Positions 22,689-64,000 of a DNA stretch of 64,000 nucleotides are shown here, piece after piece. Source of the DNA: Escherichia phage ERS-1. The stretch lies in the sequence record PP337211. One strand, written 5' to 3'. A program made the position numbers and the translations under genes. The notes under the pieces are model-generated. The model did not search any database, had not been told where the DNA came from, and saw only the letters and a list, made by a program, of their open reading frames with translations. How positions within the stretch are numbered: the stretch's first letter is position 1; each line of letters opens with the position of its first letter.

Positions 22689-22690
22689 AA

Positions 22691-29357: not shown

Positions 29358-29360
29358 GAA

Positions 29361-30690: not shown

Positions 30691-30702
30691 CCGATCTGGT
30701 CC

Positions 30703-30887: not shown

Positions 30888-30925
30888 GTGGTTCTCCGTT
30901 TCTTCGGTAGAGGGGTATCCCAATT

Positions 30926-30966: not shown

Positions 30967-32947
30967 CCCAGGCGTCCACCGCGATGTAGCGTTGGTCCTT
31001 GCCGCTCCCTTAGCAGGGACGTCCCGTCGTTGGCGTCCGCGGCGATGGCGACGGCGAACCGATTGGGTACCGGATCGCCCGAGGCGAGGTGGTCCCCCGG
31101 CCCGAAGTCGGCCCGCTTTCTCCTCGGGCCGGTCATTCGGCTCCGGGCGGAAGGGGCCGCGGTCGGGCGGCGGGCACCGGCCTTCCCCAACTCCTCCGCC
31201 GGCGAGGTTGAATTTGGGCTCGAACCGCTGCTCGTCGCGGTCCCTGCGGTGTTGGTCTGTACAAATACACGGCTCGGGGTAGTCGTCACAACCTGTCTTT
31301 GAGGCGGTCGCCGGTGATCTGGCTCGCCCGTCCAATTCGTTTCGGCTTTCCCCTTCCCTTCCCCGGAGTCCTGCGCCCAGGTCGATGCACCTGCCCGTTG
31401 TTGGTCTGTCCGATCCGGTGGGCGCGGTCCTCCGACTGGAGGCGGTCGTTTGGCTTGAAGCTGTTGGAATAATAAAATGACCTGCTCTGGCTGTGGTCGG
31501 GTGCCGGTGCTGCGTCGCCCCCGCCGCGGGGTTGCCCTTTAGCCTCGCGGGCCCGCTCCTCCGGCGGACGGCCTCGCGCCCTGGACCCTGCCCGTTGTGG
31601 GCAGCGGGCGCTCGCCCTGGAACCGGGCCTCGGCGTCCGCCCGCTCGTCGTTCGTTTCCTGCCCTGCGGCGGACCGCGCCGACGCCGCGCTCGCGGAGGG
31701 CGTCCATTTGGTGATGTCCGCTTCTGGAACCGGGCCCGGTCATCGCCTTGCGCCGGACTCCGACGGTTCCGGGGTGTCGGTGACGGCTCGGCCCCGGGAT
31801 TGTGTACCCGGGTTCCGCTTCGTCGTCGGTCGGGAGGTAGCTGGCGTGATCTGCTGGAGGCGGAGGAGCCGGGTGATGGCGAGGGCGGCGATGACCGGGG
31901 CGGTGCCCTCCGCGCCCTGTCGGGGCGTCTCCTGGTCGGTGGGTAGACGAAGCCGTTGAAATTTTTTACCGCCGTTTGCCCGGTGCCGGGCGTCCGGCGA
32001 CGGCTCCGCGGCGACCGCTTCCGCGTCCCGAAACCCGGCCCGTTCCGCCCTGTCGATGACCTGTTGGTGCTGGTGAGAACCTGCTTGCCCTGCTCCGGTC
32101 GTCGGGAGAACCGCTTGCTGGACCTGCTTCGGCGGGAGGTCGAGCACCCTTCCTTCGTGACCTGGGAGGAGACGGGCTGGAGGAGGCTGTTCGGGTGTCC
32201 AGGCGGCGATAGCCCTCTGCGTCGGGTCTGTTGCCGTCGTTCTTCTTGGTCTTGGGGTTGAAGGCGGTCGGGTTCTGCTTCTTCCAGATGCCGAAGTGCT
32301 GCTTGAACTCCGTGAGGTCCCTGCTGGTCTCGTTCCGTAGTTGTTGGTTTAAAACTCCATCTGGCTGTAGGCGTCGAAGGGTCCCGAGGGTTCCGCAGTC
32401 CCGGTCGGTGATCGCCCTGAATGGCGCGTACTTCGCGGAGCGGAGGATGGACTTGGGGTGCGCTCCGCGGTCGGGGTCTTGATGCAGTGCGCCTGTCCCG
32501 GACGTAGGAGGCGGCGCTTGTCGAAGAAGTTGGTTGGCGCCCGCTTCCCGGAGGTGGTGGTGAAGGCTTCAGGCGATGGTGGAGCCTGGCGAAGCCCTTG
32601 TGCTCGATGACGGCCTTGACCGCCTGGCTTGTGCCGCTTGGTGTCGGCCTTCGGGCTCTGGTAGTGGAAGGCCCGGGACGTGCTTGATCGCCTGCTTCGG
32701 GTACGTGGTCCGGGATTCCCTTCTGTCCCTGTTGCGGTGCACGCCTGTTCGGGGCGACACCAGCACGCCGTCCGATGAGCCCGCGGAGCCTGGCCAGCAG
32801 TGCGGTGTCGATGGCTGCTTGGACTTGCCGGTGCCCTGTTCCCGGAAGATCGCGCGGGCTTCTTCTTCGCGGAGCGTGCCGCCCTCGCGCTGGTGGTTGA
32901 AGGGTTCGGCTTGAAGGGGTATTCGGGGCGGCTCCGCTTCGGTGATG

Positions 32948-33060
32948 CCCGGAAGTATAGCCCGCTGGGCGGCGAAGGCGAGCGGAGAATCGGGTGCGCT
33001 TGGGACGGGGCCCTGGCGCTCACTTCGTGTGCTGAAGAAGTATGAAGTGGAGTAAGCGTG
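32948..33060 (-). promoter_or_regulatory. Cluster of degenerate motif copies at the left edge of the 33 kb hub
   Basis: ggaagtatag (32951-32960) and gaagaagtatgaagtggagtaagc (33035-33058). Confidence 0.3.
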
Positions 33061-33287
33061 GAAGCCCTGCGGGCTGGGGGTTTATATTCTTCTTCTTCTT
33101 CTCTTAACTCACTCAACTACTTACCTTAAACCCCGCACGGCCTCCGAAACCTAGCAAACGGTCGTGTCGCCTCCCTGGTGGGGTCCCGGCGATTTATCGG
33201 GCGAAGTAGAACTGAACTGGAGAAGTGAAGTAACCTAGCGGGAGGGTCGGAGCTGTTACGGCGCTGGGCTTTCCATGGCGCTTGGGG

Positions 33288-33316
33288 TCTACTTCTTCGG
33301 GCGTGAAGGTAATATT
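33288..33316 (+). promoter_or_regulatory. Motif-like element in opposite orientation (possible rightward promoter)
   Basis: tctacttcttcgggcgtgaaggtaatat: TCTACT, about 16 nt, TAATAT on the plus strand. Confidence 0.3.
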
Positions 33317-46000: not shown

Positions 46001-47399
46001 TGGATGGTCTTGCCCGTGCCCGTCTCCGCCGCGGCGCCGGCGGTCTTGTGGGCCCCGATGTAGGTGGCCGCGACCGCCCGGACGCGGGCGAAGCCGTTGT
46101 TGGCGGCGTCGGTGAACTGGTCGCCGCCGCGTCCCCCGCCGATGAATCCCCGCCGCCCGTCAGGCTGGGTCGTCCGTTCTTCGCGCCCGAGCCGCGGACC
46201 AGGCGCGGATAGCTGCCCGACACGTCGATGTTCGGTTTGCGGAGCCCAACTGGAAACCGACCTTGACTGCTTCGCGGTCGCCGGGGCGTCTTCGTCGTTG
46301 CGGTTTGAGTTGCTGCGGTCGTGGCCGTGGAGCTGGCGACGTTCTTCTGCCGTTGTTCGAGGCCTGACCGAAGCCGGAGGCGAGGGCCAATTGCCGGTGA
46401 GGAACCGCGACCCCTCCGTGCCCGAGCCCTGGGTGTAGGTCTTGCCGGTGCCCGTTGCGCCGGAGAGGGCGGCGGTTCCGTTGGTCGGGATGTCGGCTGG
46501 CCTTCTGCGGATGTCCGCGAAGAAGAAGCCGGCTGCGGTTTGTTGTTCTGGGTTGTTCTCACCCGAAACCGCCCGAGGCGTCCGGTTCGTGGTCGCGCCC
46601 TCTCGCGCTGGCGGGACGGGTTGATGGGGTTCCGGCGACCGTGGCCTGCGATCCTCGGGCGTTGTAGCCGTTGGGCTCCGCGGAGACCCCGTCCGGTGAG
46701 GCCGTTCTCATCGCGTCCTCCTCCCAGGCGGAGGCCGGTGACGTTGAGTCAATCTTGTTAGCCCTTGTCCGCAACCCTCCGTTTGAAGTGGTGGGTTCAT
46801 TGGTTCGTCCGCCGACTCCACCACGTTCATCTGATACCCGCGCCGTCCGGGCCAATCTCTGGATGCGTGCGTCGCGAAACCAAACGCCGCTCGCGCGCCT
46901 CGCCCCTCGAAGGCGTCCCGGCGATCATCGCTTTTTTGGGTAGGCCCGGCCCCGGACCTGCGGGTAAAACTTGTACCGTGATCCTGTCCGGTACGGGTAA
47001 AGCGGCGACCGCCGGGGTCCGAAGGTCGCCTGCCGCGAAGTCGTGTGGGGGGCGTGATCGGGGGCATAGGGCTTGTCCGCGGGCGGAGGGTCGCCCGCGT
47101 CCACCTGGGCTGCTCCACGCGGATCGGAGCCCCGCCGTGAGGGCCGGGGTGTCCGTGGTCACTTGGTGTTGAACTGCCGGGCGATTCCGTCGCGGGCGCT
47201 GTCGAAGGTCGGGAGGGTCGTTTGCCTGGCCCTGGGTCGGTGCGATTGCTCGCCCGTTCGGGTCTGCGGTTTCACGGCGATGACCTTCCGGTCTCCCAGC
47301 CGGGCCTTTCCACCTCCGGCGGAGCCGTCTGGCCCTCCGCTGGGCGAAGTCGCGCTGGTCGCCCTTGCGGATCGTCTGGCCGTCGACGTAGCGTTGCCG

Positions 47400-48800
47400 G
47401 TCCTGGAAGATCGCTTTAACGGCTGGTCCGCCGCGACGTTGCCGCCCGGCTTCCCGGCTTCGCCGGATCGGGAGCGGCCCCGGCGGTGAAGCCCCGGCAG
47501 GGTGGCGGCCTGGCCGTTCTCTTGACTGCTTCTTGGCCTGCGCGATAGCGGAGTCGGGCCGTGCCCGGACCGCCCCGGCTCGTGCCGCCGGAGCGGAGAA
47601 GGCCCGCGCGGACCCGCTTCTGGTCCGCCGCCGGGCAATTCGGGTCCGGAAGACGGCCTGCTGCCCGAAGGTGACGGACTCGCCGACGGGTCCGACCGCT
47701 TCCGACTTCGAGGACTGCCTCGCCCGAGGCGTTCCGCTCCGGGTCGGGGTTTTGGCTCCGCGGCGAGGGTGCGCGGCGTACCCGCGCGCTTCCGACCCTG
47801 CGCGGGATGTCGTCGATGTAGCAGCGGTTGCGGTCCTGGCGTCGTCCGGGGCCCTTCCCGTGGTCTGGTCGCGGCCCTGCCCTTGCCCTTGAAGTTGAAC
47901 CGCTGGTCCGGTAGTCGGTCGCGCGGATGACCGCGGCCTCGGTACCCTGGGGGTCCGTGGAGCCCGCGAAGGAGTTGCCCCGGTCGGTGTGGTAGGTTTG
48001 AACTCCTCCGCTGACGTAGGTGTTCGCCCCGGCGACGCCCTCCCGCGTCGTCTTGGACGACGGGTGCCTTCGCGTTTCCGGGCTTGACATCGGCCTGGCG
48101 GATCGTCCTGATGTTCTGCGCGGCTCCGGTTGATCTTGGTCGGCTCGGTTTCCGTAGCCCGGGCTGAGGGACGCGGGACTTGAGGCTGGTGCGTTCTGAC
48201 GTGCCGGGTCGGGTCGGCCCGGGTCGTCCGCGGGCGTCGAGGCGGTGATCCTGTAGGACGCCCGCCGCCCCGCCGTTGTAGCTGGAGGACGAAGGCCCGT
48301 CCGTGACCGTCGCGCCCGGGTTCGCGGCGATCCTCGCCCTGTTCTCGTCCAGTTTCGATGGCCGTGAGCTGGAAGCCCGGGTCAGGCGGTTCTCCCGTCG
48401 ATCGCGGGAGGGAGGCGTGGGCGCCGCGCTCCTCGAACTCGTTTGAACCGTTCGGAGCCGTCCGGCGATAGGCGACCGTGACCTGACCGAAGCCGAAGCC
48501 GGTATTTGCGATGAGGGCGCGCCTCGCCCGCGGGTTCTGGCGGAGTGCGTGAGGCTGAGACCGCTTTCCTGCTCCGATCCTGGCCGCGAGGGTCCGGGCT
48601 CCGGGCTTGCGGCCGGACCGCCCCTGCGGCTCGACCTGGGCCGGCGCATACACCTTCGCCCCCGAAGGGACGAAGGTGCGGGCGTCCTGGGCGAGGGCGA
48701 CGGAGCCGAAGGCCCAGTAAGGGACCGCGAAGGCGAAGTGAATCAGGCTCTTGCCGGCACCAATCCCAGGAAGGTGAAGGGATGGTTGGGGCGACGGCGA
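47400..48800 (-). CDS. Hypothetical structural-like protein(s)
   Basis: GIGAGKSLIHFAFAVPYWAFGSVALAQDARTFVPSGAKVYAPAQVEP and NTYVSGGVQTYHTDRGNSFAGSTDPQGTEAAVIRATDYRT on the minus strand. Confidence 0.25.
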
Positions 48801-51800
48801 GGACCTTGAGGCCCCGTCCTGCCCGAGCTCTCCCGGGCGGTGCGAGCCATTCCCAGGTCCGCCCTGGGCAGTACTGCGGGTGATCCGGGCGGTGATCCCT
48901 GCCTGCGCGAGGGCGCTGTCCGTTGCGCGAGGGTAAGGTTGCCATGGCGGGTCGATCCGGTGCGGGACGATGCTGGCGATGGTACCCGCGCGAGGTCGAA
49001 GAAGGGGCGAGGGCGCTTGCGGTCGGGGAGGAAGCGGGTGACGGCGATGTTGGTTGTTGGTTCTCCGGTTGCGGGAGGGTGCGGCCGGACGGCGGACCGC
49101 GCCCGGCTGAAGGGCGGTTGTTTTCCTGATGGCCCGGTCGCCGTCTGCGGCGATTCCCCGGTAGCCGCCGAAGTCTCTGGTGGGGTCGGCGTCCTGGCTC
49201 CCGGCTCCGCCGGCGGACTTGCTGGTCCGGATCGGGCTGGGACGGTAGGAGACTTGGAGGCGCCTGCCGCTGATTGCCTGGTCCTGGGGTCCGGGAGTGC
49301 GCCGTCCCGCGCCCGGGCGTCCGCTCGCCGTTGGGCGAACTCCGCCCGGAGGTCTGCGACGCTGTCGGCGGGCTTTCCCGTTCACGGTTCTGTCGTTGGC
49401 CTCAGCCAGGAGGCGTCTCCTGCTCCCGTTCCCGGGCGCGGACCTCCTCCTCGGATTCGTCGATGGCCTCCGCCGCCTCCGCGGTCGCGTCCGCCTTCCC
49501 GGAGCCGTAGCCGAAGCCGTAGCCCGCGAGGGTGATCAGGCGACGGTGAGGACGCCCGCCGCGGCCCGGGCCTTGGAGGAGGGGAAGCCGAACCGGCCGG
49601 ACCTCGCCCTTGTCCCTTGCCCTTGATCGGCGGCGGGGCCGGAAGGAGCCGGAGCGGACTTGCCGCCCCCATTGTCCTTCCAGTTCTGGCCGTGACGGTC
49701 GCCCGAACTTTCAGGGTTGACCATCTTCGAGGCGGTTGCCTTGGTGGTGCCGGATTTCGCCGGATGCTTCTCCTTCGGAGTTGGTTGGGTTACTGAGCGG
49801 CCTTCGCCTCGTCGCGGGTATGGCCCGGGGCGACGGCTTCCCGTGGCGCGGGTGATGCCGGGGAGCCTGCTTCTCCCGGTGGTCATCGCGGGCTTCCCGT
49901 CCTTGGTCGGTGGGTGTCGTCCGCCGGGTCCTGCCCAGGACCGCCTTCTGGAGCTTGGTGTTGGCTCGGCGGTCGGCTCCTTCGCCGGATCGGTCGGGAC
50001 TGCCGGTCGCCCGTCCCCTTTGGATATACCCGGCTCGCCCGGCTTCGGCTTCGTACCTCTGCCGCGACAGGCGCCGCGTCCCGGTTTTGGCCTGCCCCCG
50101 TTGGGCTGAACGTCGCCGTGTACCGGCTGTTGGCCGTCCGGCTGGCAGCCTTCTTGAAGATCCCGCTGGCCCTTCGGGCACCTCTTCAGTGCGGGTGTCC
50201 TTCCGGGTAAGCCTGCCGTTGCGTTCGAGGAAGCGGGCGTGGGGCGACCTCCTCCGCCGGAGCGGTGATGGTCTGGGCGGCCCTTCTCGAAGGCGTAGGG
50301 CTGACTGCCCCAGCGGATCGCGCGACCCGCGAGGGTTCCGGCGGAGAGGGGCGTTCGTTTGGATGATGGTGGTCCGGTACGGTTCTCCGGTAGATTAAGG
50401 GAAGGGCGGACCGATCCCGCGATGGTGAGGGTGTTACGGTGCGGCCCGCCCTTCGGGTACGCGGGCGGGGCGCCCGCCCCGTCGCGGGGCGAGCCCTTAG
50501 TTCCCGAGGATGCCGTCTGCGGTGGTCGAGCCCTCCCGCCGTCGCCGTCGAACTTCGTGGTGGTCGCTGGCCGTCGGAAGCCGGCGAGGTCGCCGGCGGC
50601 CCCGCGCTGTGCCCTGTTCGTGGCCGGACTTGTCCGCGTGCCGGTCACGGCTTCTCCGCTCGTTTGGAGTCCTCCGACCGGCCGCCCTTCGGGTACGACG
50701 GGGGCCTCCCCCGGAGGGCGGGACCGCCTGGATGCCCGCGGCCCTGAGTCGCGGTCGGGTCCTCGGCCATGCCGTGGTGGCCACGCCTGCGCGCGCAACC
50801 GTTGTCTGCGTACCCGCGAAGATCGTGGTGGTGTCGGCGCCGGTGCCCTTGGTCTGGTTGGTCGGGATGTAGTCGTTGCGGAAGATCGGGGTGCCCGAGT
50901 AGGCCGGACCTCCGCGCCGCTGGCTCGACAACCCTGTTGATGGACGGACCCTGGTGGTGCGGAGCAGCGCCTTGTAGCTGTGGTGTACGCGCGGGCGGCC
51001 ATGTAGTTCGCCTGGCTGCCCTTGTCGGCCAGGTCCTTTGCTTGTTCTTTCCAGTGATGGCGAAGCTGACGTCGGAGCCGTTCGCGCCGGTGGTCGCTTT
51101 CTGACCGGAGGCGCACAGCTGGATCAGGCCCGCGAACTCGTTGCCCGCGCCGGTGCCGTTGATCCGCTGGTCCTGGCAACTTGCGGCTGGCGGACTTCGC
51201 CTTGGAGGCGATCTGGACCTGCGGTCTGGTCGTCGCCGTCGCCGGAGCGGGTAGCCTGGATCCTGGCTGTTCGCTTTGGCGTTGCCCGGATGGTGGTGAG
51301 GTTGGAGTTGACCTTGGCGAGGTTGGCGGCCTTACCGGTGCCCGCGCTGGAGAAGGTCGTGCCGAGCCGGCCTCACGACGTTGCCGGGTGACGTTCTCGC
51401 GGTTGTACGCGAGGCCGTCGCCTTCGATGGAGCTCGAAGGGCCGTCGAACCTTTGCCGGTTGACGGTGATGATGTTCTCGATCCCTTGCCCGTGCCCGTT
51501 CGTCCTGGGCCGCTTGGCGCTTTCGGGGGGAAGCCTAGCCTTGACGGCTTCCTTCCGGAGTCGATGAATTGTAGCGGTTTCTGCCGTGCCGGATTGCCCG
51601 GTGTTCCGTCGCGGCCCGCGGAATGCCCCGTGGGCCTTCGCCTCTGGTGATATGTCGGAGCGGATGCCAGAGTACGGTTGCGAAAAGGGAAGCCCCCTGG
51701 CCGGGCCCCGGGGCCTCCCCATCCGTGTCGCCCGACCGCGGCCCGCCTTGAACTGACCCTTGGCGAGGCCTGGGCGATCTTCTCGTTGGCGGTGGTGACC

Positions 51801-54800
51801 TCGCCCTGCTGGCGCGGAGGCGTTGACCGCCGCGCCGGAGGGTTGCCGCCGCCCGCCGGGGCTTCCGACTCCAACCTGTGGCCTGGCTTCTCGTTGGCCT
51901 TCCATTTGCTGACCGGCTCGCGGATGGTCCTTGGGCTGGCCGGTTGTCGCCTGAGAATGCTGGACCCCTGGGTCGACCCGAGCCCTTGAATTCGCCGTCC
52001 TGCTCCACCCCTTGACCTGGTCTTGATGAAATGGTGAGTTCCGGGATGCCCTTCGGCCTTGGCGGCTGGTGGTGGTGCTTCTCTCTACCTGGAGCCTGGT
52101 GCCGGTTCTGGAGGGCTTCGGCGCGGGCTCCGGCCCTTCTGTCCTTCGCGCGTGGCGGTGGCCCTGGTGAACCTTGTCCGTTTGCTTGGCTTCGCCGCCC
52201 TGCCCTGTTGTTCTGGAGTTCGGTCGGCTTCGCGGCGATGTTGGCCTTGATCTCCCTCCTGGCGTCGTCGAAGCCTGCCCGGGGCGGTTTGGCGAGGTCT
52301 TGGCCTTCGCCTCGGCGCGAGCGGCCTTGAGGGAGCGGTTCCTGCTGGTCGTTGGTTTGCCATCCCCTTGTGGGCTTCGTCCGGCACGGTCTGCCCTTCA
52401 TTGCCTGCTGTAGATTCCCCGGCAACTGTTCCGGGACCTTGTCGATGGAATCGACCGGAGTGAATTGAAGTTGGGAATCTGTACCCCTGTTGCTGGTGGA
52501 TCCCGCCTGTGTTGTGCCTTGCGGTTTGGTGTTGTAGCCTCTGGCCTTGTGCGGGTGCCTGCCTTGCGGAAGGCGTCCGGCTTGCGCTCCGCGAGTTGAG
52601 AGGGCTGCTCGTTGCCGGCCGATCCTGGACCGGTCCCGTTCTGCCTGCCCTCCCGGGCTGCTTGGCCTCGGTCTTGCCCGTGACCCTTCCTGGAAGGAGG
52701 CGGGCTGCGCTTCAAGAAGTCCTGACACGCGGTCGCCGCCGGAACCCGGCCCCGTTCTCCGCGGCCCGGCCTTCCCGACGTCCTGGATCGGCTGCCCTGC
52801 CCCTCCTTCGCCTTCCGGCGGAAGTCGATTTCGCTTGGCGCGGGTCCGGGATCCGTTGCGGTCGGCGATTGCCCTGGAGGCCCTCGCCGTCGATGTAGGC
52901 GACCGGCCGACTGGTGAAGTGGGCCGGGGCTTCGCGTCCTTGGGCTGGAGGTGGGGATGTCCGCGGGGCTTGTCGCTTGCCTCGGGGCTCCCGTGGCCGT
53001 CCCGGGCGGGGTGCCTGCCGTGGTCCGACCGTCCGGCGTGTCCCCCGGCCTTCGCCGTGATGATGTCGCTGTTGGCGTCCCGGGCGCAGCCCCGCGCGGT
53101 GTTGGACGCGGTTGACCGCGGTGCGGACGATCCCCGGGCGTCCCGCCGGGTCATCGACGATGCCGTCCGGGCGGCGCTCTGCGCGTCCCGACCCCGCTGC
53201 GATGTCGTCAATGGGTTCCCCCGTTCGTCGTCCGAGCTGAAGGGCCGTGGCTGCTGCTGCTGGCTCAGCCGCCTCCGGTGCTGAACCTGTCCCGGCAGGA
53301 ACCGGCCCTGGAACGGGCGGAGGTGGCGATGGCCCGGAGCTGGTCCGCGTTCGGTTGCCTTGAAGCTCGTCGTAATCGTGATGGAGGACCTGTAGGCCGT
53401 CGATTTCGGCCTGGCCTTCGAGGACGGCGAGCTGCCCGAGTCGCCTGGCGGGTCTTGTACTCCGCGAGGGCCGCGGCCGGGCTCCGCGGATGTCCGTGGG
53501 TGGCCTTCCTGCGTTCGCCGGTGAAGTCCGTGCACGGCCCTTGAAGCGGGCGAGCCGGGTGCGCGTGTTCGGTCGTGTCGCGGTCCGCCTCCTCCGGGAG
53601 CCGGGCGACCCGCTGGCGACGCCCGCGGTGTAGCGGTGGTGTCGATCCTGGTGACGCGCGGCGTCCCTGTAGTTCTTCGTTAAATGTTGCGGTTTCTGCC
53701 CTTCTGGATTGTGTCGGTCGGTAGCCGGTCTTCCTGGGCTGCTTTGATTGAAGGAGAGGCCTCCCGTCGGGCGTGACTGGGCGAGCCGGGCGAGCTCCCC
53801 GCTTCGCTTTCCGCCTTCGCCGCGTCTCCGGCGATCTACCGACCCCGGACCGCTCCGAGAAGCGTTGCTTGGCGTCCTCCTTCCCTCGACCTGGACGGCC
53901 TGCCGCGGCGCTCCCGGACTCCGGCGGCTTGTGATAGCCGGGCGCGCCTTCGCCCCTTTCGGTTGCTTGTAGCCGTTCGGCTTCCTGGTCCCGAAGGCTT
54001 GAATGGCCCTTTGTTCGGCTGGGTGTAGTCCCGTTGTTCCGTGATTGCGGCGTTTGGTTGCGCCTGGCCCGGCAACTGTTCGGGCGTGGTGGAAGGGCCT
54101 CCCCGGCACTTCTCCCGCTTCAGCGGCCCGCCTCGGCGTACCGGTCCTTGAACCGGCCTGAGCCGTCTGGGTCGTGATGCCCAGAGGCTTTCCCGTTGGG
54201 GAAGGACCCGGGGGCCTGTCCCTGCGTTTCCTCCTCCGGCTCTGGTCGGTCCGTTTGCTGAAGTGGATACGCCTGATCGGAACGGGCCAGGACGATGCCT
54301 GGAGGAGCGAAGCCGGCAAGTGCTGGTTGTCGGCGGTTTACGCCTCCCGCATTTCCGCGCTTCGCCGCCTTCGCCGCCCTCGCCTTCGCCTTCGCCCTCC
54401 TCCCCTTCGGGCGGGTTCTTCTGGCCGGGTCCGTTAGGCTGCGCGGCCCATCGCCTTGCCCATTCCTCCGGCTCCTCCCGTCCTCGTCCGTCCAAGTCCT
54501 CCGGCAGGACCCGCGCGGAGGCCGTTCGGGGCGCCTCCGCCGGCGACGTCGCGCTTCTCGCGTGCGACTTGGAGGGCCTGAAGGCCCGGGCGTCCGTTCT
54601 CCGTCGGCCCGGGCGCGGCGCCGCCGTTCGGCCCGAGGCGGTAGCCGTTCCGCGGCGACGTCCGGGCCTGGGCCGGGCGTCCTCGCACCTGCCCCGTCGT
54701 CGCGCTCGCGTCGCCGGTCGCCTCCGCGCTGTCCGCGCCCGGCGGTCGCCGTCTGCCCGCCGGTCTGCGCTTCGGGAAAACCCCGCGCCAGGCCCGCCCC

Positions 54801-57513
54801 GCGCCTCGGGTGCCCTTGAGGTCCGTGCGGCCCGCGGCGATGGCTGGCCGTGTGCTCCAAGTAGAACCGGCCCGCCGGTCCGGGTTGGAGGCCCTCGCTC
54901 CGGCCGATACCCTCCGGTCCCAGTCCTCCCCGCACGCCCCCAGGCGAGGATCGGGAAGCGGGAGACGGTGAGGATGTGGCGTTGGTCGGAGGCGGACTGC
55001 CCGTGCGCCGTTGAGGTGAGCCGTGCCGGGAGTGGGGGGCTTGCCCTTTAAGCCTTGGCGGTCCGCGTAGAAGGTGACCTGCGGGGACGTAGTTCTGGGC
55101 CCCGTCGCCCTTCTCCCCTTGCCCTTGCCTCCTTCCTGGGCGTTGGACTTCTTCGCCGGCTCCCGGCCTGGAGGCCCGGCTCCGGGACGCGGATGTGGCG
55201 CTTGGCGACCTCCGCGAAGCCTGCCCTGCTCGGCGAGTGTTCGATGATGCGGACGTGCTGGAGGACTTCCACCCCGTCGATCGACCTCTGACCGGGCGAA
55301 CCTGGGGCACCCTCGGCCCATCAGTTCCCTGTACTGGGCGCAGGCCCTCCCGGTGACCCTTGCCGGGTCTGGGGTTGGCCGCCTCCGCGGGGCCTGGGGC
55401 GGGGGCGTCGATGAGGACGTGGGCAGGGCCTTGGCCCTGCCTTCGCGAACGGAAACTGACGGGCGTACCGTCGTTCCCCGCAGGTCCGTTGGTGATCGTC
55501 TCCTCAATTGCCTTGGGACGTTCTCTCGTCCAGCTTGATCGGCTCGCTGAAGGGCTTGCCGCTTGGGTGTCCGTGTCTGTTCGACCCTTGCTCAGGAGGA
55601 CGGCGGAGGCCTGGGCGCTCCTGATAGCCCTTGTCCGTCTCCTCCTGGGTGGCGGGGTACGCCCCTGCCCGCCTCGCGCATTGTTTGCCCCCTGCCCTGG
55701 GCGTCTCGATGACGTGCCTGCGCGGAGCCGGTTGCGCCCCGCTGGTCGTGGCGGGGCTCTTCGGGCTCTTTGTTGGCCGGCGGTCGGTTCTCCCTGGTTC
55801 GCGGAATCTCGCCCGAAGGCGAGGACCCGGGTCAGTTGCATGCGCCTGCTCTGACGCGCGCTCGTGCGCGGCAGCGGTTGCGTCGCCGTGGTCCTCCGCC
55901 TCCGTGTTCGCTGTCCTGTTGTCGTTGTGGGGCCTACCTGCACTGTCTCGATGGTCTGTGATGCTTCCGTCGAAGATGGGGACCTGCCCTGGACCTCGCG
56001 CGGTCCCCCGCCCGCCGGAGGGGCAACCCCCTCGAGGCTGGCGGATTCGCTCCTGCCCTGCTCGCGCGAGCCTGGGCCTCGTCCGCGGGCGTCCGGTGAC
56101 GCCTCCTCCCCGTCGGCGATGCCGTCGCCGTTCTCCCGCTCAAGATGGAGGAGCTGCGGGGCCGGGCTGACCCGACCTTCCGGTCGCCCCTCCCCTCCCT
56201 CCCCTCCCTTGGGCGACCTCTGAGGCGAGCGGCACGCCCTCGTTGCGCGTTCCGTTCCTGCTGGCACCGCTCCTGGACGGGCGAGATTGCCCCTGCCTTT
56301 CCCGGCCTCGCGGCCGGTTCCCTTCCCCCAACGGCTCCCCTTCCCACTCCGCCCGGCGACGGCGAAGGGCTTGCAGCTGCCCCGTGAAGCCGCGGGACTT
56401 TTCGCTTCGGGATCACCGAGGGCGGACGGAGGACGACGTGCACGTCCCCCGCGGTAGATGTCGTCAAACATTCCTCACCCGCGATGATGTCCCGGGAGCC
56501 GTGGAGCCAGGCGGCGAGTTCGGAGGGGTTCCGGGCCGCGGCTCGAATCTTGCCGATGTACTCCGGGTCAGCGTGGAAGGTGATTTGGTCTCGGGCATGG
56601 ACCGTGGATGGCGACCCGGGGCGGTTCGCGCTCGCCGTCTCGCGTCCGTGATTCCCGACTGCCGGTGGGGAGGCGGAAGCGGGCCTTGACCCGTCGTGGC
56701 CGGGGCCTAGGGGTCGGCGGTCGCCCGGTAGCAGTGGGATCCGGCTTCGCGGAGTGGCAGGGTCCGTTAATGGCGAGCTCTGCCATCGGCCGAGTTGGTA
56801 AGTTCTTCCCTGCCAATCCACGGATAGGCGTGGCCGTGGTAGTTCCAGATCCTCCGGCGACTTCGCGTGACGCGAAGCTGCTCCTCGCCGTCCGGAAGGT
56901 CCGACTTGTGCTCCACCTTGTTCGGTACTCGGCCCCCGGGAGATGTGCTTGTCCCTTGGTGGTCTGTCATTGTCTGATGGCTGGGGTAGGTCGTGAAAGC
57001 CTATGCCCTGCCTCTCGACCCGTAGCCCTTCCCCCGGTGCCGGAGGAAGTCCATCAGCAGGCAGCTCGGTCTGCCCGGGCCGCGCGTCCCCTCAGACAGC
57101 ACCTCGAAGATCGGGTGCGCCTTTAAGGAAGGCGAGCTGCGACCTGTACTGCGGGGCCTGTCGCCTCCGACTCCTTCCCCGTCTCCGGTCCGGCAGCAGC
57201 CCTGGCTCGCTGGGCTCCGCCTCGCGCCGCTTCGGACCAAGAAGGTCCGGGCGGGCGGCGATGGCGACCGCCTTGTCGTTTTTCGGTTCGAGCGGGCTTT
57301 GCCGCCCTCCCCGGGTCGGACGGCCCGGCGTCCCGCGGGCGAGGTCCCGGGCTGGTTCTGCCGGTCGTTGATCGTGGCCTGGAGCCCCCGGACGAATTAC
57401 CCTGCCGGTGCCCGAGGCGGGCGGCTGGCCGCGTCCTTCCCGTTCCTCGAACCTCCTGCGGTGGGCGCGGAGGCATGGCGCGAGCGAATCGCTGGCACCC
57501 CGCCTTCGTGCGG

Positions 57514-57846
57514 TCACTCCGTCCTTGAACTTCCCGCCATGATCGGGCGCTCCTCGCCGCCCGCGCCCGCTTCAGGGCTGTGCTGGAACCTGTGCCGTCG
57601 CTTGGCGGGCGTCCTCCGGCCTGGGAACTCTTGGGTCCCTTGAGGCGATAGTCGATGGTGGAGCCCGGCACGCCGCGGCAGTTGCGCGTGTATTCCGCCC
57701 TCCTGTTGGGACGCGTGCGGTAGGTTCCGTACCTGCCCTCGCGGTCCGAGGCGAAGGGTCGGCTTTGGCTCCGGTTTTGGTTCTTGGTTGGGGCGGGTTG
57801 CTCCCCCTTCGGCGTGACTGTTCGTCGGTTGCGGTTGCGTGGCCAT
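57514..57846 (-). CDS. Hypothetical protein, first gene of the leftward block
   Basis: ATG at 57846 about 40 nt downstream of the motif half-site at 57884-57901; MATQPQPTNSHAEGG... Confidence 0.3.
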   Translation of the reverse strand: MATQPQPTNSHAEGGATRPNQEPKPEPKPTLRLGPRGQVRNLPHASQQEGGIHAQLPRRAGLHHRLSPQGTQEFPGRRTPAKRRHRFQHSPEAGAGGEERPIMAGSSRTE

Positions 57847-57883
57847 CCGAACCCGGCCTCAGGTTGGAGGAGTTTCCCTCGCC

Positions 57884-57901
57884 GCGAGTATAGCGTGAAG
57901 C
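57884..57901 (-). promoter_or_regulatory. Conserved motif half-site at the right end of the leftward gene block
   Basis: gcgagtatagcgtgaagc, same CTTCACGC-TATACT arrangement as copy 5; lies between the AT-rich island and the first minus-strand ATG at 57846. Confidence 0.4.
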
Positions 57902-58282
57902 TTGCAGTTAGGCGGGTCGCGCGCGGGGAGAGGTCAGGAGCGTGTGGCGAGGTGCTGTCTCAGGGACAAACCAAATGATGTTTAACCTTAGCAGACCACC
58001 CGGTCCCAAGTAGACTACACATAACCATCGCTAAGGTTAACCTGGTAACCTGCACACAATACTCTCAGCACCTCTATCCGCTTTTTATTTAAAAACTCTT
58101 GGTTTCTTTTAAACGTTTGGCCCGATGATTTTTTGTTGCAAAGAGGTTTCCTTATTTTCTGTTGTTTCTTTTGATTCCCCTTTAACCAGTGAATTTCTAG
58201 GTGCTGGGAACTCTGTGTCCCAACTTACCAGGTTAACCTTAGCAATACGTAACTGAACCAAGTAGATGCTAGCAAGTCAATT

Positions 58283-58510
58283 GCTAAGGTTAACAGACGA
58301 CTACAAACGGAATCTACAGCGTCAATTGCGTAGTGAAGTAAGAAAGTTGAAAAAATCAGTTTACATTGACGATGATTTTGATTACAATACTTCTCAACCA
58401 GTTTAAGTTTAAATTAATCTTTTGAGGTTTGTCGGAACAATTTATATTAAACTGGTTCTTTTTAAACAGGTGCTGTCGATTCCGTTTGTAGTCGTCTGTT
58501 TAACCTTAGC
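58283..58510. repeat. About 38 bp inverted repeat flanking a 151 bp AT-rich spacer
   Basis: Left arm 58283-58320 gctaaggttaacagacgactacaaacggaatctacagc; right arm 58472-58510 is its reverse complement with one indel and one mismatch. Confidence 0.7.
58360..58388 (+). promoter_or_regulatory. Near-consensus sigma70-like promoter facing right
   Basis: TTTACA (58360-58365), 17 nt, TACAAT (58383-58388), inside the IR spacer; downstream AAGGA (58551-58555) and ATG at 58565. Confidence 0.5.
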
Positions 58511-58564
58511 ATATGTCTAATGTCGAAGCCACACACCACCGCCAGAGTTAAAGGATCGACTCCC

Positions 58565-59701
58565 ATGGAACACCAGCACCTTCGGCATCAAGCTGAGCAA
58601 GATCTTCCCGTGGCTGGTTCAGGAAGGAGCTGCCGGGATCAATCGACTTCCCGTGGCGGACCTCCTCAACGCGCCCGGAAGGTGAACAGGCCTGCGCATG
58701 ACCTTCGCCCAGCTCCGTCCAGGATGACCTGGCGGTGAACGGTCGCCTTGGCGGGACGTTCAACCTGCTTCGCCGCCGGAAGGATGACGAAAGCGACGGG
58801 ACCGCGGGCGCCGCCGCACGGGCGACTGTCCGTGAATGCCCGAACCTCCCTGGCCGGCTCGGCATGAGTTCGCCCTTCACGTGGTGGGGCCTTCCACCTC
58901 CCGGAGGAAGGCCGGGCGTCTGGGCGTCCGGACGATGTCACCTGCCTGGAGCTGCGGCGGCGGCTCGTCACGCCTGCTCGGCGAAGGACCTGATTGGTGG
59001 GGCCTGGCTGTCTGGGTTGAAGCCCGGGACAGGTACTGTACGAACACCGAGCATCCGAGGACCCTCCGGTGATGGTGGACATGGCGGGGATCAAGCGCAA
59101 GGACGCCAAAGGAAACTACCTGGGCCGTCCTACGGGATGGGCGGGGCGAAGATGTGCCTGGGCTCGGGCTCCCGACGATGATGGCCGTGCGCGGCCCCCG
59201 CTTCCGCTGTTCGACGCGGCACCTGCCCGGAGGGTCGGCGCCTGGTCGCGGAAGGGGCGCGGAGGTTCGAGGCCGCGGGGCCGGAGGGTCAGGCCCTCCT
59301 GGACACCCTCCACCCGGGTGCCCGTTCGCATCGGAGAAGCTGGCGAAGGCTTGCGAAGCCCGGGCGAAGGCCGTGGGCGGCGTCACATGACCTGAGCGGT
59401 CGCCGCTGCCGCTTCCCGAAGGAGGGGACGGGAACTACGACTGGGACCCGGCGACCAACCGGCTGATCGGGCTCCTCCCGCGGACCGGGTCAAGATGGCG
59501 ATGGTGGCCTGCGCGGAAGCCGGACTGGGGCGTCCCGGGGCCGGCGATGAGATCGCCTTCGGCTAGGCGAGGCGGAGGAGGCCGCGGAAGCTGCCTGGTT
59601 GCGGACGTGTACGCCGCCCCAACTCCCGTCAAGGTGGACGTGGAGATTGGGCAGGCTGGGGTCATCGCTTGGGCTGGACGGGAGCCGCCTTTGCGGTTCC
59701 G
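58565..59701 (+). CDS. 5'-truncated family A DNA polymerase paralogue (polymerase domain only; possibly a pseudogene)
   Basis: Collinear inverted homologue of minus-strand 16230-15095: PNL box TVRECPNLP, motif A-like D.VTCLELR, SAKDLIGG, FEAAGPEGQAL, EKLAKACEARAKAVGGVT, motif C-like GDEIAF, C-terminus VKVDVEIGQAG...RFRYG, TGA at 59699-59701. Contains a 50 bp stretch identical to the reverse complement of 15481-15530. No exonuclease region. Confidence 0.5.
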
Positions 59702-59799
59702 CTACGGGTGACGTGGGTGTCGGCTCACTCGTTTGCGGATCGCTGCGGGTGTACCCGCTCGACCCCGCAGGAAGTCCGGGCGAACCCCTGGAGAACGAT

Positions 59800-60100
59800 A
59801 TGCGCCGTGGCAACGACAGCGTCCGTGGACCTCGAAGTGTTGGCGAGCGTGAGAAAGGGGGCCCTGGTCGACGGCGGCGGTGAGGAGGAAGTCTGGATGC
59901 CGGGTTGGTGTCCGCGCGGTCGAGAAGAAGGGCCTGCGGCCACCTGGACCGTCACCGAATGGATCGCCGGGTCAGAAGGGGCTGATATGAATGATCGCTG
60001 TGCGCTGGGAAGTTCTGGGCGGCGATGATCTGGGAGGCGGTCCTGGTCTGGCTCCTGGTAGGCGGTTGCCGGTGGACGCCTTCGAGTCCTTGACCTGGCC
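59800..60100 (+). CDS. Small hypothetical protein (paralogue of the gene downstream of the left polymerase)
   Basis: GGAGAA, 4 nt, ATG at 59800; homologous left copy reads VIERETDKAYLIDHSG but has ACC in place of the ATG. Confidence 0.3.
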
Positions 60101-60159
60101 TCCTGCTGGGCGGCACTTCCTCGGAACGTTGCCCGGTTTCCGCTGAAGGAGGAGGTGAA

Positions 60160-60378
60160 ATGAGCGAACGTCAAGACCGCCTGGGACCGCCGCGATGTTG
60201 GGCTGGCCGGTCGTCGCGGGCTGGAAGGGGTGATCAAGGTCGGAGCCGTCCTGGTCGGCCGGGCGGTGGCGCGGCTTCGACCGGGTTCAACGGCTTCCCG
60301 CCCGGTGCGATGACTCGCCGGAGCTGTACGCTGACCGCGGTGTACCTGCCGTCGGTGGCGGAGGCGTTGGCTCTTTAG
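60160..60378 (+). CDS. Small hypothetical protein
   Basis: Strong RBS AAGGAGGAGG, 5 nt, ATG at 60160; MSERQDRLGPP...; ORF as given in the track. Confidence 0.4.
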   Translation: MSERQDRLGPPRCWAGRSSRAGRGDQGRSRPGRPGGGAASTGFNGFPPGAMTRRSCTLTAVYLPSVAEALAL

Positions 60379-60387
60379 GCTCGCCTG

Positions 60388-60410
60388 CGACGGCTTCGCT
60401 CTACATTCTT
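60388..60410 (+). promoter_or_regulatory. Degenerate plus-orientation paralogue of copy 5 (right arm of the duplication)
   Basis: cggcttcgctctacattctttccc aligns with the minus-strand reading of copy 5 (cggcttcacgctctatacttcttcccc); flanking sequence is collinear. Confidence 0.35.
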
Positions 60411-61276
60411 TCCCTGCTGTCCGAACTGTATGGAGGCCGCGGGGAAGGCGGGCGTGAAGCGGGTCGCCTTCCCGGTCGACTACGGGCTGCGATCCGGGGT
60501 GGGTTGCTGAGTGGAATTCGACGGTTGATGAGGCTTTGGAAGTCGCCCGCCGTTAGGGGTTGAAGCGAGGTGGGTAGATGTCTGAAGCCGGGCGCGGGAC
60601 TCCCTCCGCCCCGTCATCCGGTCGCTGGACCCGGTGCGCGTGGAGAACCCCTTTCGCGCCCGGGACCCCGGATGTGAACTATGCCGGGCTGGATTGAATT
60701 GAAGTTCGCTGAACGCTGGCCGCCCTGGGCGGACCGCTTCCGAGTGGACCGACTCCACCTGCCCAGCACCTGGCTCACCCGTCGCCGGGTGCCGGGGCCG
60801 GGCCTTCCTCCTGCTGAAGGTCGGGAGACGGAGTGGTTGCTGATTCGATGGAGCGGTGGCCGCTGCGACGCCGGGCCGGGTTCCGCGAGAACGCCTGTAT
60901 GAGGTCTGCGCTGCCGTTGGATGCCTTCCAGAAATGAGGAGATTTGTAAATGTCGCCGCGGTGAGGCGGGCGGAAGGTGAAAGCCCACCGCTACACCGCC
61001 GCTGGCAGGGTTGAACCAAATTGAGGCCGCGAAGGAGTACGGGGTCCTTGCACCGCTACCGTGATGGGAAGCGGACCGCCGCCTGGACGATGAACCGTGC
61101 CTGTCCCGGCGAGGTCCGAGCCCGAGGTCTGCTTGCTGTTCCGCCGCCGCTCGGGCAAGACCTGCGCGAAATCGCCGCCGCTCTGGGCTGACTCGCCTCG
61201 GGTTGTCCAGATGGCAGGACGGAAAGCGCCGGTTGAGCGCCTTCGTGAATATTGGGGCTTTTGAGGGGGATCGGAA

Positions 61277-61868
61277 ATGGCGGAACTGCCGAAGTGGAGA
61301 CGAGGATGGTTGACTTCCTGAAGAAGCGGTGCCGGAGGGGCCGTGGGTCCTGACGGCCATCGTCCGGACGGGAAAACGGAGACGGTACCGTCTTGTTGCC
61401 CACTGCTTAAGGCCGCGGAGTGGATCGAGGGCATCAGGGCAAGCGGGCCCCGGATACTTCCTCGCCAACCCGGCTCCGCCGGGCGATGGACGTGAAAGCC
61501 TCGAAGGAGGGATGGCCCGCCTCGCCTGGCTTCGCGTCCACCCCGCGAGCCGGGAGGACTTCGAGGAGGAGCGGGCGCGGGCGCTCAGCTGCTCCGGTCT
61601 GACCGCCGGAGCCGGCGGTCATCGTTGACTCGGGCGGGGGCTATCCGGGCTTTTGGCGTCGAACCCGTCCGAGGCCTGGAGATTGCTGGATCGGCGGCGA
61701 AGGCTGGAGCTGGAAGCGTAGGTGTTCGGCTGGAGAAGGTGTTTCAGGCGGACCAGTTGCCGGCCACGTGGACCGCATCATGCGCCTCCCGGGCGATCAA
61801 CATGCCCCGCGAAGAAGGTGGAGAAGGGTCGCCTGCCGACCCTCGCCCGTCTGCGTGGAGTGGAATGA
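61277..61868 (+). CDS. Gene X paralogue (about 197 aa)
   Basis: GAGGGGGA, 5 nt, ATG at 61277; shares blocks (acggccatcgtccggacgggaaaacggagacggt; cgtgaaagcctcgaaggagg; gtcatcgttgactcgggcgggggctat) with minus-strand 13611-13023; C-terminus AKKVEKGRLPTLARLRGVE. Confidence 0.45.
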
Positions 61869-61911
61869 GGCCGCTACCCCATCGAGGTTTACCCCCGCGG
61901 TTCGAGTCCAG

Positions 61912-63783
61912 ATGGCGGAGCAGGGCCTGGCCGGGGGCCGTCCGAAGGTGAGATTGGGGCACGTCCGGAGGTTCGGGGACGGAGGAGCTGCGGAGCGGGC
62001 CCTTTAGGCGCAAGGCCATCCGTTACCCGCGCTGGCGCTGATCGCTACTGGGCAGGGACCCGCCGGACCGACCAAGTACCCCTCCCGGTCGGAAGCCCTG
62101 TTCGGGTGCTCGCTGCGACCTCGTGCGGGCGGAGGTCCCTGATGAACGACTTCGCGGGTGATCGCCGGCTTCGGCGAAATCGCCGCGCAGCCTGTCCGGT
62201 AGGGCCCAACTGGGAAGGCTACGCCTGCGGGGGTTCGAACGTGCCCTTGAGGAGGCGGTGCACCCTCGGCCTGGGCGGACCAGAAAGCTCGCCGTCGGTG
62301 GAGGTTGGCGGAAGTGCCGGGCGGTGAGGTCTGGGACCCGGCGATGAAGCGGTACGGGTCTGGGGGTCCTTCGAGGACTTCCGGCACGCTACCGCCGGAG
62401 GTAGTGGTTGGTCGGAGGAGGGGGTAGCCGTTGAGAAGGCCGCGGGAGCCTTCTGGATCGATCACCCGTGCTGCCCGGCACGAGACGGTTGGTTCGCCCC
62501 CGGCCTGAGGTCGAAGAAGCCTATGCCTCTGGCGCGGGTTCGCGCGCGATCCTCCCGGCGAGAGCTGCGCCCTCCCGGCACCTTCGTGAGGGCGCCGCCG
62601 GGGAACCCGGCTACCACGGTCACCTGGTCGGGTGGATGGCGCGGATGGTCCCGTTGCACGGCCCGGCGAGTGGCCGTGGTCCTCCGCGGTCGCCGCGGGC
62701 CGGGTTCTCTTCCTTCGCCGGTAGTCCTGGCGCGATGTTCGGGGGCGTCACGACTTCCGGCTTGCGACGAGCTGGTGGGCTCCTCAAACGCTTACCTTTG
62801 CATACCGTCCTGCTGTTCGGTGATGAGGCTTTCTTCGCCGGGAGGAGGCGAAAGCGTGCCGAGACCTCGCGACCGAAGAACGCCTGGTGATCGAGGGTAA
62901 GGGCGTGGACGCGGAAGCGGCCCCAACCATGTCCCTGGTCCTCGCCTCGAACGAAGATTGGGCGGTGCCCGCGGGTCTGGATGAACGCCGGTCTTCGTTG
63001 GTGGAGGTGGCGAGGGCCCGGTGACCCCGCCTGATTTCAGCGGTTGGGTGATGATCTGGAGGGCGCAGGACGCAGCCCGCCCCAGCCTTTCTCCCACCTA
63101 TGACCTGAGCGCCTTCGAGGTTCGCCAGTTAACCGGGCGCTGCAGGACCAGAAGATCATGAGCATGTCGCCGGAAACCTGTGGATGTATGAGAAGCTGTG
63201 GGAGGGCCGGTCGCTCAAAGACCGACCAGGACTGGCGAAGCAAGGTGGTGAAGGACAGCTGCTGCCGCATGACGACGACGCAACGACCTCCGCGACCAGG
63301 GCCGGAACTTCCGCATGAGCCGCACCCGGCTTCGGCGGCTGGCTGCCCGGGCCTTCCCGGACGGCTGGCCGCGAAGTGAAATGGCGGAGATCGCTTGGAC
63401 GGGTCAAGGTTGGCTTCGAGGTGATGATCGAAGAAGCGCGTGGCCACCACCCGCCGCCGGAGGTGTCCGGCGCCTGGGAGAACTTTGGCGGCCCGTTCGA
63501 GTGGCCCGGGGTCCAACCTACCAGGAGCCTCTGAGGACGGCCCGAAGTCGGAGGCCGTCCCTTCCCAGGATGCCCCCATGAGTGAGCACGCTGTAAGCGA
63601 CGAAGCGGGAGCTGGAGGGGGCGGGGATCGCCTACACGGTGGAGCTGGCCGGAGAGGTCAGGAGGCCGCTTCGCCGTGAGGGGGAAAGCCCCGATGGTGA
63701 CGTGCTCGCGGACTTCCTCCACGTCGCGTGGCCCTCGGTCGCTCGCCTTCGCGTCTGGTGGAAGACCGCCGCGCGCTGGAATT
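61912..63783 (+). CDS. SF3/P4-D5-type helicase-like P-loop NTPase (right copy)
   Basis: ATG at 61912; Walker A region VVLRGRRGPG(K)SF..., Walker B TVLLFGDEAFFAG (62810-62836), sensor-like LVLASNEDWAVPAGLDERR (about 62940-63000); several frame breaks; ends just before the plus-oriented motif at 63794. Confidence 0.45.
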
Positions 63784-63793
63784 GACCTGAACC

Positions 63794-63823
63794 GCTTTAC
63801 TTCTTCGGACTCTATCACTTCTT
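63794..63823 (+). promoter_or_regulatory. Bipartite conserved motif in plus orientation (right-arm counterpart of copy 4)
   Basis: gctttacttcttcggactctatcacttctt on the plus strand, followed by GGAAAGGAG as at copy 4; spacer is shortened. Confidence 0.45.
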
Positions 63824-64000
63824 TGCCAGTTTGAGAAATGAACTGGTCCGGCCAGGTCGCGATTCGAGATTGGAAAGGAGCTGACCCTTAAATTAGGAAG
63901 AAGCCTTCCGCTGGTGCGGCTTCCCGATCCCGCGCGGTGGGGGTCCTGGTAAGTTGGGCGAGGACTCGCTGCGCGAAGCCCGTTGCGATTCGAGTTTGAA

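Follow-up and report, generated by a model that had tools for sequence, protein, structure and literature searches.

The window, by which we mean the whole 64-kb stretch of DNA analysed, contains two arms with replication genes in opposite orientations. Aligned with itself, it shows inverted collinearity between the right arm (58,582-64,000) and the reverse complement of positions ~16,190-10,870. Self-BLAST of the window returned two long inverted HSPs, one pairing 10,928-14,625 with 63,937-60,236 (70.2% identity over 3,935 columns, E = 0), the other pairing 14,829-16,139 with 59,966-58,624 (71.0% over 1,392 columns, E = 5e-131). The similarity between the arms is far beyond chance, and the extended inverted collinearity proposed in the first-pass annotation is therefore real. 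So is the identical block reported at 59,250-59,300, which is slightly longer than described: the exact match has 56 nt (59,244-59,299 versus the reverse complement ending at 15,536). The identity of 80-90% estimated by eye was too high; we measured 64-70%, with more than 300 indels, mostly of 1-2 nt. The collinear segment had been drawn from ~58,530; the arm itself holds, but it begins at 58,582, and positions 58,530-58,581 are adapter and NB07 barcode. The features of the window are as follows.

1-57,948, minus strand: read A, a noisy single-molecule read of a nearly complete Yuavirus-like phage genome, with seven collinear HSPs against WP2
10,870-16,190, minus strand: left arm, inside read A, corresponding to WP2 28.6-34.4 kb; an ordinary single-copy replication module
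57,950-58,032, plus strand: NB08 rear element, AGGTGCTG, NB08 (5 edits) and TTAACCTTAGC, then garbled ligation adapter
58,027-58,073, plus strand: NB03 front element, ATTGCT adapter tail, AAGGTTAA, reverse-complement NB03 and CAGCACCT; 41/47 identical
58,074-58,198, plus strand: T-rich insert of 125 nt with NB03 on both sides
58,199-58,263, plus strand: NB03 rear element, AGGTGCTG, NB03, TTAACCTTAGCAAT and ACGTAACTGAACGAAGT (adapter); 59/66 identical
58,280-58,320, plus strand: NB02 front element, ATTGCT, AAGGTTAA, reverse-complement NB02 (1 edit) and CAGC; 40/42 identical
58,321-58,467, plus strand: NB02-flanked insert of 147 nt, a fragment of a T4-like (Tequatrovirus) Escherichia phage
58,468-58,528, plus strand: NB02 rear element, AGGTGCTG, NB02 (24/24), TTAACCTTAGC and adapter; 57/64 identical
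58,544-58,581, plus strand: NB07 front element of read B, AAGGTTAA, reverse-complement NB07 (5 edits) and CAGCACCT; 33/40 identical
58,582-64,000, plus strand: read B, the right arm, matching the plus strand of WP2 28,660-34,331 at 82.4% identity; noisy, running off the window

Positions 1-57,948 alone span 61.2 of the 61.9 kb of WP2, the seven HSPs ranging from 76 to 90% identity. The minus strand of the window is collinear there with the plus strand of WP2, from reference position 47,091 to 61,928 and then from 8 to 46,363. The gaps of read A relative to WP2 correspond to mosaic HNH-endonuclease regions present in other Yuavirus phages, and its nucleotide collinearity with recognised members of that genus is genome-wide. 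The left arm lies within one unbroken HSP (6,029-22,727 versus WP2 39,502-21,698) and comprises the C-terminal two-thirds of the DNA polymerase gene, small ORFs, a dCMP deaminase and a primase-helicase. In a set of ~60 Yuavirus genomes, each arm is ~82% identical to one and the same DNA polymerase/dCMP deaminase/primase-helicase region, and the locus matched by both is single copy, being found at one place per record.

The phage alignment stops at 57,948, and what follows up to 58,581 carries Oxford Nanopore ligation adapter and native barcodes, the barcode, flank and adapter sequences of which were confirmed in published sources (PMC9229804 Table 1; bioRxiv 10.1101/2021.06.06.447246; bioRxiv 10.1101/2022.07.07.499093). 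In order, this junction comprises the NB08 rear element, the 125-nt insert between two NB03 elements, the T4-like Escherichia coli phage fragment between two NB02 elements and the NB07 front element. All six native-barcode elements have canonical flanks, with alignment scores of 49-102 against null maxima of 26-32 (69 against 30 for NB03 front, 102 against 32 for NB03 rear, 49 against 26 for NB07 front), and the two NB02 copies match at 24/24 and 23/24 positions. The barcode search, a bit-vector edit-distance scan, gave no match with fewer than 6 edits in the window outside the junction, and the scan inside 1-57,948 (up to 5 edits) likewise gave none. The NB02 front and rear elements also appeared in the self-BLAST as an inverted repeat (58,282-58,320/58,511-58,472). 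The NB02-flanked insert is 93.9% identical to phage sequence over 97 nt (E = 3e-34), and the 743 phage records matched are mostly from Escherichia or Shigella phages. The NB03-flanked insert had no match in the phage collection. Searches of viral and metagenome contigs for exact 45-mers of the window likewise gave no hits.

Judging from its sequence, the garbled adapter after NB08 reads as the end adapter of one molecule followed by the start adapter of the next. Front and rear barcode structures are reverse complements of each other but for ~5 nt, and those nucleotides are garbled here. The junctions have start-adapter halves that fall short of the expected length and are garbled to a greater degree than anticipated, and a poly-T leader was not seen at any of them. 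The right arm follows directly on the barcode flank CAGCACCT, its first position falling near codon 288 of the DNA polymerase gene. Across the junction the map position jumps, as read A ends at WP2 47,091 on the minus strand and read B begins at 28,660 on the plus strand. Adapter and barcode sequences thus lie internally, between segments that map independently and contiguously to discontiguous or unrelated references, namely two loci of WP2 and a T4-like phage.

We then compared the two arms with WP2 in a three-way alignment. Differences private to the left arm occupy 17.8% of the columns and those private to the right arm 15.2%, whereas only 3.1% of the columns hold a difference from WP2 common to both. 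Accordingly, the arm-to-arm identity in this alignment (0.64) is near the product of the two arm-to-reference identities (0.605). The error profile is alike in both arms if they are oriented by the window strand, not by the gene strand: reference A is reproduced in 57-68% of cases versus 94% for G, miscalls to A are almost absent, and deletions outnumber insertions ~3:1. Such an indel-rich, deletion-dominated and read-oriented profile is that of single-molecule sequencing, and the apparent divergence of the arms is independent basecalling error in each read. Strand-biased mutation or hypermutation, considered as the origin of the asymmetric arm-to-arm substitution matrix, was rejected after both arms had been compared with a reference, since in each arm the bias goes with the strand of the window and, in phage DNA, occurs at CA sites alone.

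In phage DNA the errors centre on 5'-CA-3' (TG on the opposite strand), and they do so for both strands of the genome; the synthetic barcodes are spared. CA is reproduced in 18 of 21 cases in the barcodes versus 14% in phage DNA, while A distant from CA is called with 92.6% accuracy and accuracy at least 10 nt from CA sites is 92-93%. These figures led us to reject a general basecaller bias against A.

The genes named in the first-pass annotation, a polymerase and a primase with an NTPase domain, do match homologous reference genes, but neither copy contains them as intact ORFs. When reference proteins were aligned to the arms by tblastn, the hits were fragments that jumped from frame to frame, with 27-40% of amino acids identical. 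None of the long ORFs in the window gave a Pfam match, and no codon-position periodicity was detected in the window. On these grounds we rejected the idea that the arms are coding paralogs.

Taken together, the window is almost certainly an uncorrected Oxford Nanopore sequence that chains at least four separately barcoded molecules of a multiplexed phage run, and not a duplication. It is either a raw read or a contig made from such a read without polishing. In this reading, molecule 1 (NB08) is the nearly full-length genome of a Yuavirus-like Pseudomonas phage, and molecules 2 and 3 are short inserts, one with NB03 and one with NB02, the latter from a T4-like coliphage. Molecule 4 (NB07) derives from that Yuavirus genome or a very similar one, being a fragment read on the opposite strand from inside the DNA polymerase gene. 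Since molecule 4 covers part of molecule 1 a second time and in the opposite orientation, the window has the appearance of a diverged inverted duplication. Three things were observed directly: the adapters and barcodes at the junction, the star-like pattern of errors, and the fact that each arm maps by itself to one and the same locus. As complete sequencing adapters, not barcodes alone, separate the molecules, their joining most likely took place in silico, consecutive molecules of one pore having been left unsplit by the software. Four different barcodes in one chain are unusual and count against this explanation, as do the short, garbled start-adapter halves and the lack of a poly-T leader, though multiplexed runs are expected to yield in-silico chimeras across samples.

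The same artefact might instead have come from physical ligation during library preparation, or from an unpolished assembler or a read simulator downstream. We regard these origins as unlikely. Ligation libraries do yield ligated chimeras, and the adapters at the junction have no leader and do not reach the length of two full adapters. However, sequencing-adapter sequence, and not the barcode adapter alone, is present between all molecules, and ligation is not expected at the outer ends of the Y-adapter. Simulators such as Badread, for their part, would not confine errors to the CA sites of phage DNA while sparing barcodes.

A genuine diverged inverted duplication, giving the phage genome a second paralogous replication module, was the first option put forward, and 5.4 kb of extended inverted collinearity at 64-70% identity would agree with it. 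The content of the junction refutes it. Instead of a native junction, synthetic adapter, four barcodes and a foreign T4-like coliphage fragment separate the arms, and the boundary cuts the polymerase gene midway, right behind a barcode flank; the right arm is attached by a chimeric join. Moreover, relatives have one copy of the module, the left read by itself already equals the full genome length, the reading frames are intact in neither arm, and nearly all differences are private to one arm (15-18% versus 3.1% shared against WP2). We therefore consider a true duplication extremely improbable.

A foldback (2D or template-complement) read, where sequencing of the template continues into the complement strand of that molecule, would explain the inverted orientation and the origin of both parts from the same phage. 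It would, however, resume at reference position ~47,091, whereas the right arm starts at 28,660. The second arm is not the reverse complement of the sequence just before the junction, the arms are not symmetric about it, their barcodes differ (NB08 versus NB07), and two other barcoded molecules with unrelated inserts lie in between. Of the foldback assembly artefact suggested earlier, the artefact thus stands but the foldback mechanism does not, its probability being as slight as that of the duplication. Finally, long diverged inverted terminal repeats of a linear (e.g. protein-primed) replicon, also raised earlier, have practically no probability even though the right arm is cut off by the end of the window and the polymerase lies inside the repeat: the repeats do not occupy both physical ends, as the left copy is internal (10.9-16.2 kb) with collinear genome on both flanks, adapters mark the junction, the polymerase is that of a Yuavirus and belongs to the family-A type of phage polymerases, and for Yuavirus genomes circular permutation and headful packaging have been described (PMC11946847).

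With the chain of separately adapted molecules as the preferred reading, the main value of this analysis is a warning, as all 64 kb of the window are nanopore sequence, uncorrected and with adapters still in it. The following traits are technical in origin: the strong A/T skew between strands, the absence of stop codons from one strand, the 'giant ORFs' and the 'diverged duplication'. Other findings drawn from this window on the basis of ORFs, skew or divergence should be reconsidered with this in mind. Had the duplication been accepted, a phage would wrongly have been credited with two replication modules or with long inverted repeats.

The CA/TG error footprint may fit the thymidine hypermodification of M6-like phages, provided that the strand basecalled was the reverse complement of the window. 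We somewhat favour the view, based on the pattern of miscalls, that hypermodified T would be present at essentially every 5'-TG-3', on both strands and in any flanking context, and not at TC, TA or TT. If true, this would give the specificity of the 5-hmdU kinase or hypermodification pathway at single-molecule and dinucleotide resolution, where the prior hint was restriction resistance alone, with a 'TG, TC or TS' motif. The TG/CA footprint could then serve to map thymidine hypermodification from native nanopore reads.

In phage M6, ~30% of T is modified to 5-NedU, and the restriction-resistant sites of M6-like phages are enriched in TG and TC (Lee et al. 2018, PMC5889632; Flodman et al. 2019, PMC6449724). 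Unlike in that restriction pattern, TC (GA in the window orientation) is unaffected here. The likeness to 5-NedU modification of the M6 type would lie in the errors falling on one base of the CA/TG step, and in TG making up 32.6% of T in the reference genome, compared with ~30% of 5-NedU.

Among known phages, read A resembles the genus Yuavirus (Mesyanzhinovviridae, Rabinowitzvirinae; taxonomy in PMC11946847), whose members M6, YuA, WP2, PAC4-9 and LKO4 share its replication module and its promoter-like repeat. The mosaic HNH regions of read A are also common to other members. Basecalling errors limit the raw identity of read A to WP2 to 76-90%.

In-silico and ligated chimeras are both documented in Oxford Nanopore ligation libraries, at ~1% of reads. 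Compared with these, the present case stands out by the length of its chain, in which four molecules carry four different barcodes, and by a read of ~58 kb covering nearly a whole genome. In its other traits it resembles the chimeric nanopore reads described previously (White et al. 2017, PMC5600009; Wick et al., bioRxiv 10.1101/2021.02.21.432182): discontiguous pieces are joined with internal adapter or barcode sequence, each piece maps independently to a reference, and the barcodes are mixed.

The inverted collinearity between the left arm (about 10,870-16,190, minus strand) and the right arm (58,582-64,000, plus strand) reported in the first-pass annotation was confirmed. Comparison of the window with itself yielded two extended inverted matches at ~70% identity, 10,928-14,625 with 63,937-60,236 (E-value 0) and 14,829-16,139 with 59,966-58,624 (E-value 5e-131). 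The identical 50-mer noted earlier is an exact match of 56 nt, and the arm identity estimated by eye at 80-90% came down to 64-70% when measured. Aligned globally, the arms show >300 indels, most of them 1-2 nt long, and their substitution matrix is strongly asymmetric. The duplication itself is not real but an artefact.

We queried each arm separately against 50,697 phage records. Each matched the same region in ~60 Pseudomonas Yuavirus (M6/YuA-like) genomes, with 81-82% identity across 97-99% of arm length, and this locus is found in one place only per genome. In the reference phage WP2 (PP596840.1, 61,933 bp), the region codes in order for a DNA polymerase, two small ORFs, a dCMP deaminase, two small ORFs and an 803-aa primase-helicase. 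The 'polymerase', 'small gene', 'gene X' and 'SF3-like NTPase' taken as anchors of two module copies are genes of this locus, which each of these genomes has only once. Each arm is a copy of this one known locus. In both arms, reference proteins could be aligned only piecewise, in overlapping fragments that occupy several frames and are 27-40% identical.

A promoter-like motif of ~44 nt recurs in the window. Its gene-strand sequence is CTTTACTTCTTCGG-N8-CACTATACTTCTTCAC, alternatively GCTTTACTTCTTCGG-N8-CACTATACTTCTTCAC, and it resembles TTTACT-N17-TATACT.

Occurrences of the promoter-like motif in the window
2,540-2,583: motif copy
4,949-4,992: motif copy
~11,035-11,080: motif copy, with a right-arm twin at ~63,794-63,830
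~14,400-14,440: motif copy, with a right-arm twin at ~60,388

WP2 contains at least five copies, so Yuavirus genomes do carry this motif as a regulatory repeat, promoter-like by sequence. The annotation had rightly recognized a repeated element, but each right-arm 'twin' is one copy read twice.

Positions 1-57,948 (read A) are collinear with WP2 on the opposite strand, descending from reference 46,363 to 8 and then from 61,928 to 47,091, and the left arm falls within a single unbroken HSP. As 61.2 of the 61.9 kb of WP2 are covered in these first 58 kb, the whole genome is already there, and the right arm re-reads part of it. The right arm (read B) maps to reference 28,660-34,331 on the strand other than that of read A, and it opens at around codon 288 of the polymerase gene. 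Four stretches have no WP2 alignment (183-382, 22,728-23,100, 50,391-50,726 and 53,688-54,247). The second and fourth have matches in LKO4, PC1, Pa-L, SN1 and PAC4, in regions of these other Yuavirus phages that contain HNH endonucleases, which indicates that the sequenced strain is a mosaic relative of WP2 and not WP2 itself; the gaps appear to be mosaic HNH-endonuclease regions present in other Yuavirus genomes.

Read A stops at reference 47,091, a point ~166 bp upstream of the small terminase gene; position 1 of the window corresponds to reference 46,363, only ~730 bp away on the opposite side. The molecule is thus approximately one full genome length, with one end near the terminase genes. 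That end may be the packaging start, i.e. a pac-proximal first headful cut; circular permutation has been described for Yuavirus genomes (PMC11946847).

The junction between the two reads (57,950-58,581) is AT-rich synthetic DNA that parses completely into Oxford Nanopore native-barcoding (NB) and ligation-adapter sequence.

Elements of the junction, in order (rc, reverse complement)
Element 1: AGGTGCTG-NB08-TTAACCTTAGC, then garbled adapters
Element 2: ATTGCT-AAGGTTAA-NB03rc-CAGCACCT, 125-nt insert (58,074-58,198), AGGTGCTG-NB03-TTAACCTTAGCAATACGTAACTGAACGAAGT, adapters
Element 3: ATTGCT-AAGGTTAA-NB02rc-CAGC, 147-nt insert (58,321-58,467), AGGTGCTG-NB02 (24/24 exact)-TTAACCTTAGC, adapters
Element 4: AAGGTTAA-NB07rc-CAGCACCT, with phage sequence directly after, from 58,582

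Local alignments of five barcode elements scored 49-102, whereas 200 pieces drawn at random from the window gave null maxima of 26-32; a separate alignment was made for the NB08 element. A scan of the window beyond the junction found no barcode with <6 edits in either orientation. The BC01-BC11 barcode sequences agree with PMC9229804 Table 1, the AAGGTTAA-barcode-CAGCACCT structure is documented for NB01-04, 07 and 08 (bioRxiv 10.1101/2021.06.06.447246), and both ligation-adapter strands are published (bioRxiv 10.1101/2022.07.07.499093). A short inverted repeat, 58,282-58,320 / 58,511-58,472, corresponds to the two NB02 elements. Over 97 nt, the insert between them shares 94% identity with T4-like Escherichia/Shigella phages (E = 3e-34); by this similarity, it is a fragment of a T4-like (Tequatrovirus) Escherichia phage, foreign DNA that came from a different sample in the same multiplexed run. 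The NB03-flanked insert is T-rich and of low complexity and matched nothing in the phage collection; it could be junk signal or else a short piece of DNA from a different sample.

The sequence therefore strings together at least four molecules that were adapted separately in a multiplexed phage run and carry barcodes 08, 03, 02 and 07. Because full sequencing-adapter sequence lies between the molecules, the chain is most likely an in-silico chimera, formed when molecules that followed one another through the same pore were left unsplit. Such chimeras are documented alongside ligated ones among Oxford Nanopore reads (~1% of ligation-library reads). Ligation of the molecules, or their joining at a downstream step, would fit the junction adapters, which are shorter than they ideally would be and also more garbled, but we consider this improbable given the adapter sequence separating the molecules. 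The foldback assembly artefact proposed earlier was correct as to artefact, but foldback is excluded: read B does not pick up where read A stopped (reference 47,091), and its barcode is a different one. Biological duplication is rejected by the loss of ORFs throughout both copies, a boundary after a barcode flank and the coliphage fragment between the copies.

The apparent divergence of the arms is noise that arose independently in each. When the two arms and WP2 were aligned together, differences were confined to the left arm in 17.8% of columns and to the right arm in 15.2%, and both arms agree against WP2 in 3.1%. Arm-to-arm identity (0.64) is close to the product of both arm-to-reference identities (0.605). 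On the window strand the error profile has the same direction in both arms, though they represent opposite genome strands: reference A is reproduced at 57-68% and G at 94%, miscalls to A almost never occur, and deletions outnumber insertions ~3:1.

Several properties of the window are not those of a finished genome sequence. Its plus strand contains 11% A, 21% T, 36% G and 32% C, with an AT skew of ~-0.35 over 1-58,000. On the minus strand, all three frames are open over kilobases and stop codons are nearly absent, giving 'giant ORFs' (e.g. 3,763-8,997, 1,744 aa). No ORF of the window has codon-position periodicity, and ten of the longest (up to 1,744 aa, left-arm ORFs included) had no Pfam hit at E ≤ 0.01 and translate into low-complexity R/P/G/A strings. 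The A depletion, open minus strand and giant ORFs follow from CA-centred miscalls, and we rejected coding or replication biology as their source. Other findings from the window that rest on skew or ORFs are suspect.

The footprint of these miscalls was quantified on 10,800-16,300, 24,000-34,000 and 58,582-64,000 and assigned to the whole window. The reference dinucleotide CA (window orientation) is reproduced at only 12-20% in both reads and all 16 flanking contexts. Accuracy is lowest at the A of CA (0.20), recovers symmetrically over ~±5 nt and reaches 92-93% at ≥10 nt; A away from CA sites is called at 92.6%, equal to C and G. A basecaller quirk was rejected, as CA is reproduced in 18/21 cases in synthetic barcode elements vs 177/1,226 in phage DNA (Fisher p = 1e-12). 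The footprint suggests that the phage DNA is modified at CA/TG steps.

The modified base is probably a hypermodified T in TG. Should the window represent the reverse complement of the strand that was basecalled, the miscalls would fall on the T of 5'-TG-3', and TC, TA and TT would be essentially unaffected. The front and rear adapter structures are mutual reverse complements apart from ~5 garbled nt and hence have no power to settle read orientation, which we infer from known chemistry. In M6-like phages, ~30% of thymidines are replaced by 5-(2-aminoethyl)deoxyuridine (5-NedU), the other nucleosides being canonical (PMC5889632), and restriction-resistant sites of M6 are enriched in TG/TC (PMC6449724). 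A TG motif has also been inferred for another hypermodified Pseudomonas phage group, and TG accounts for 32.6% of all T in WP2, compared with the ~30% 5-NedU reported in M6.
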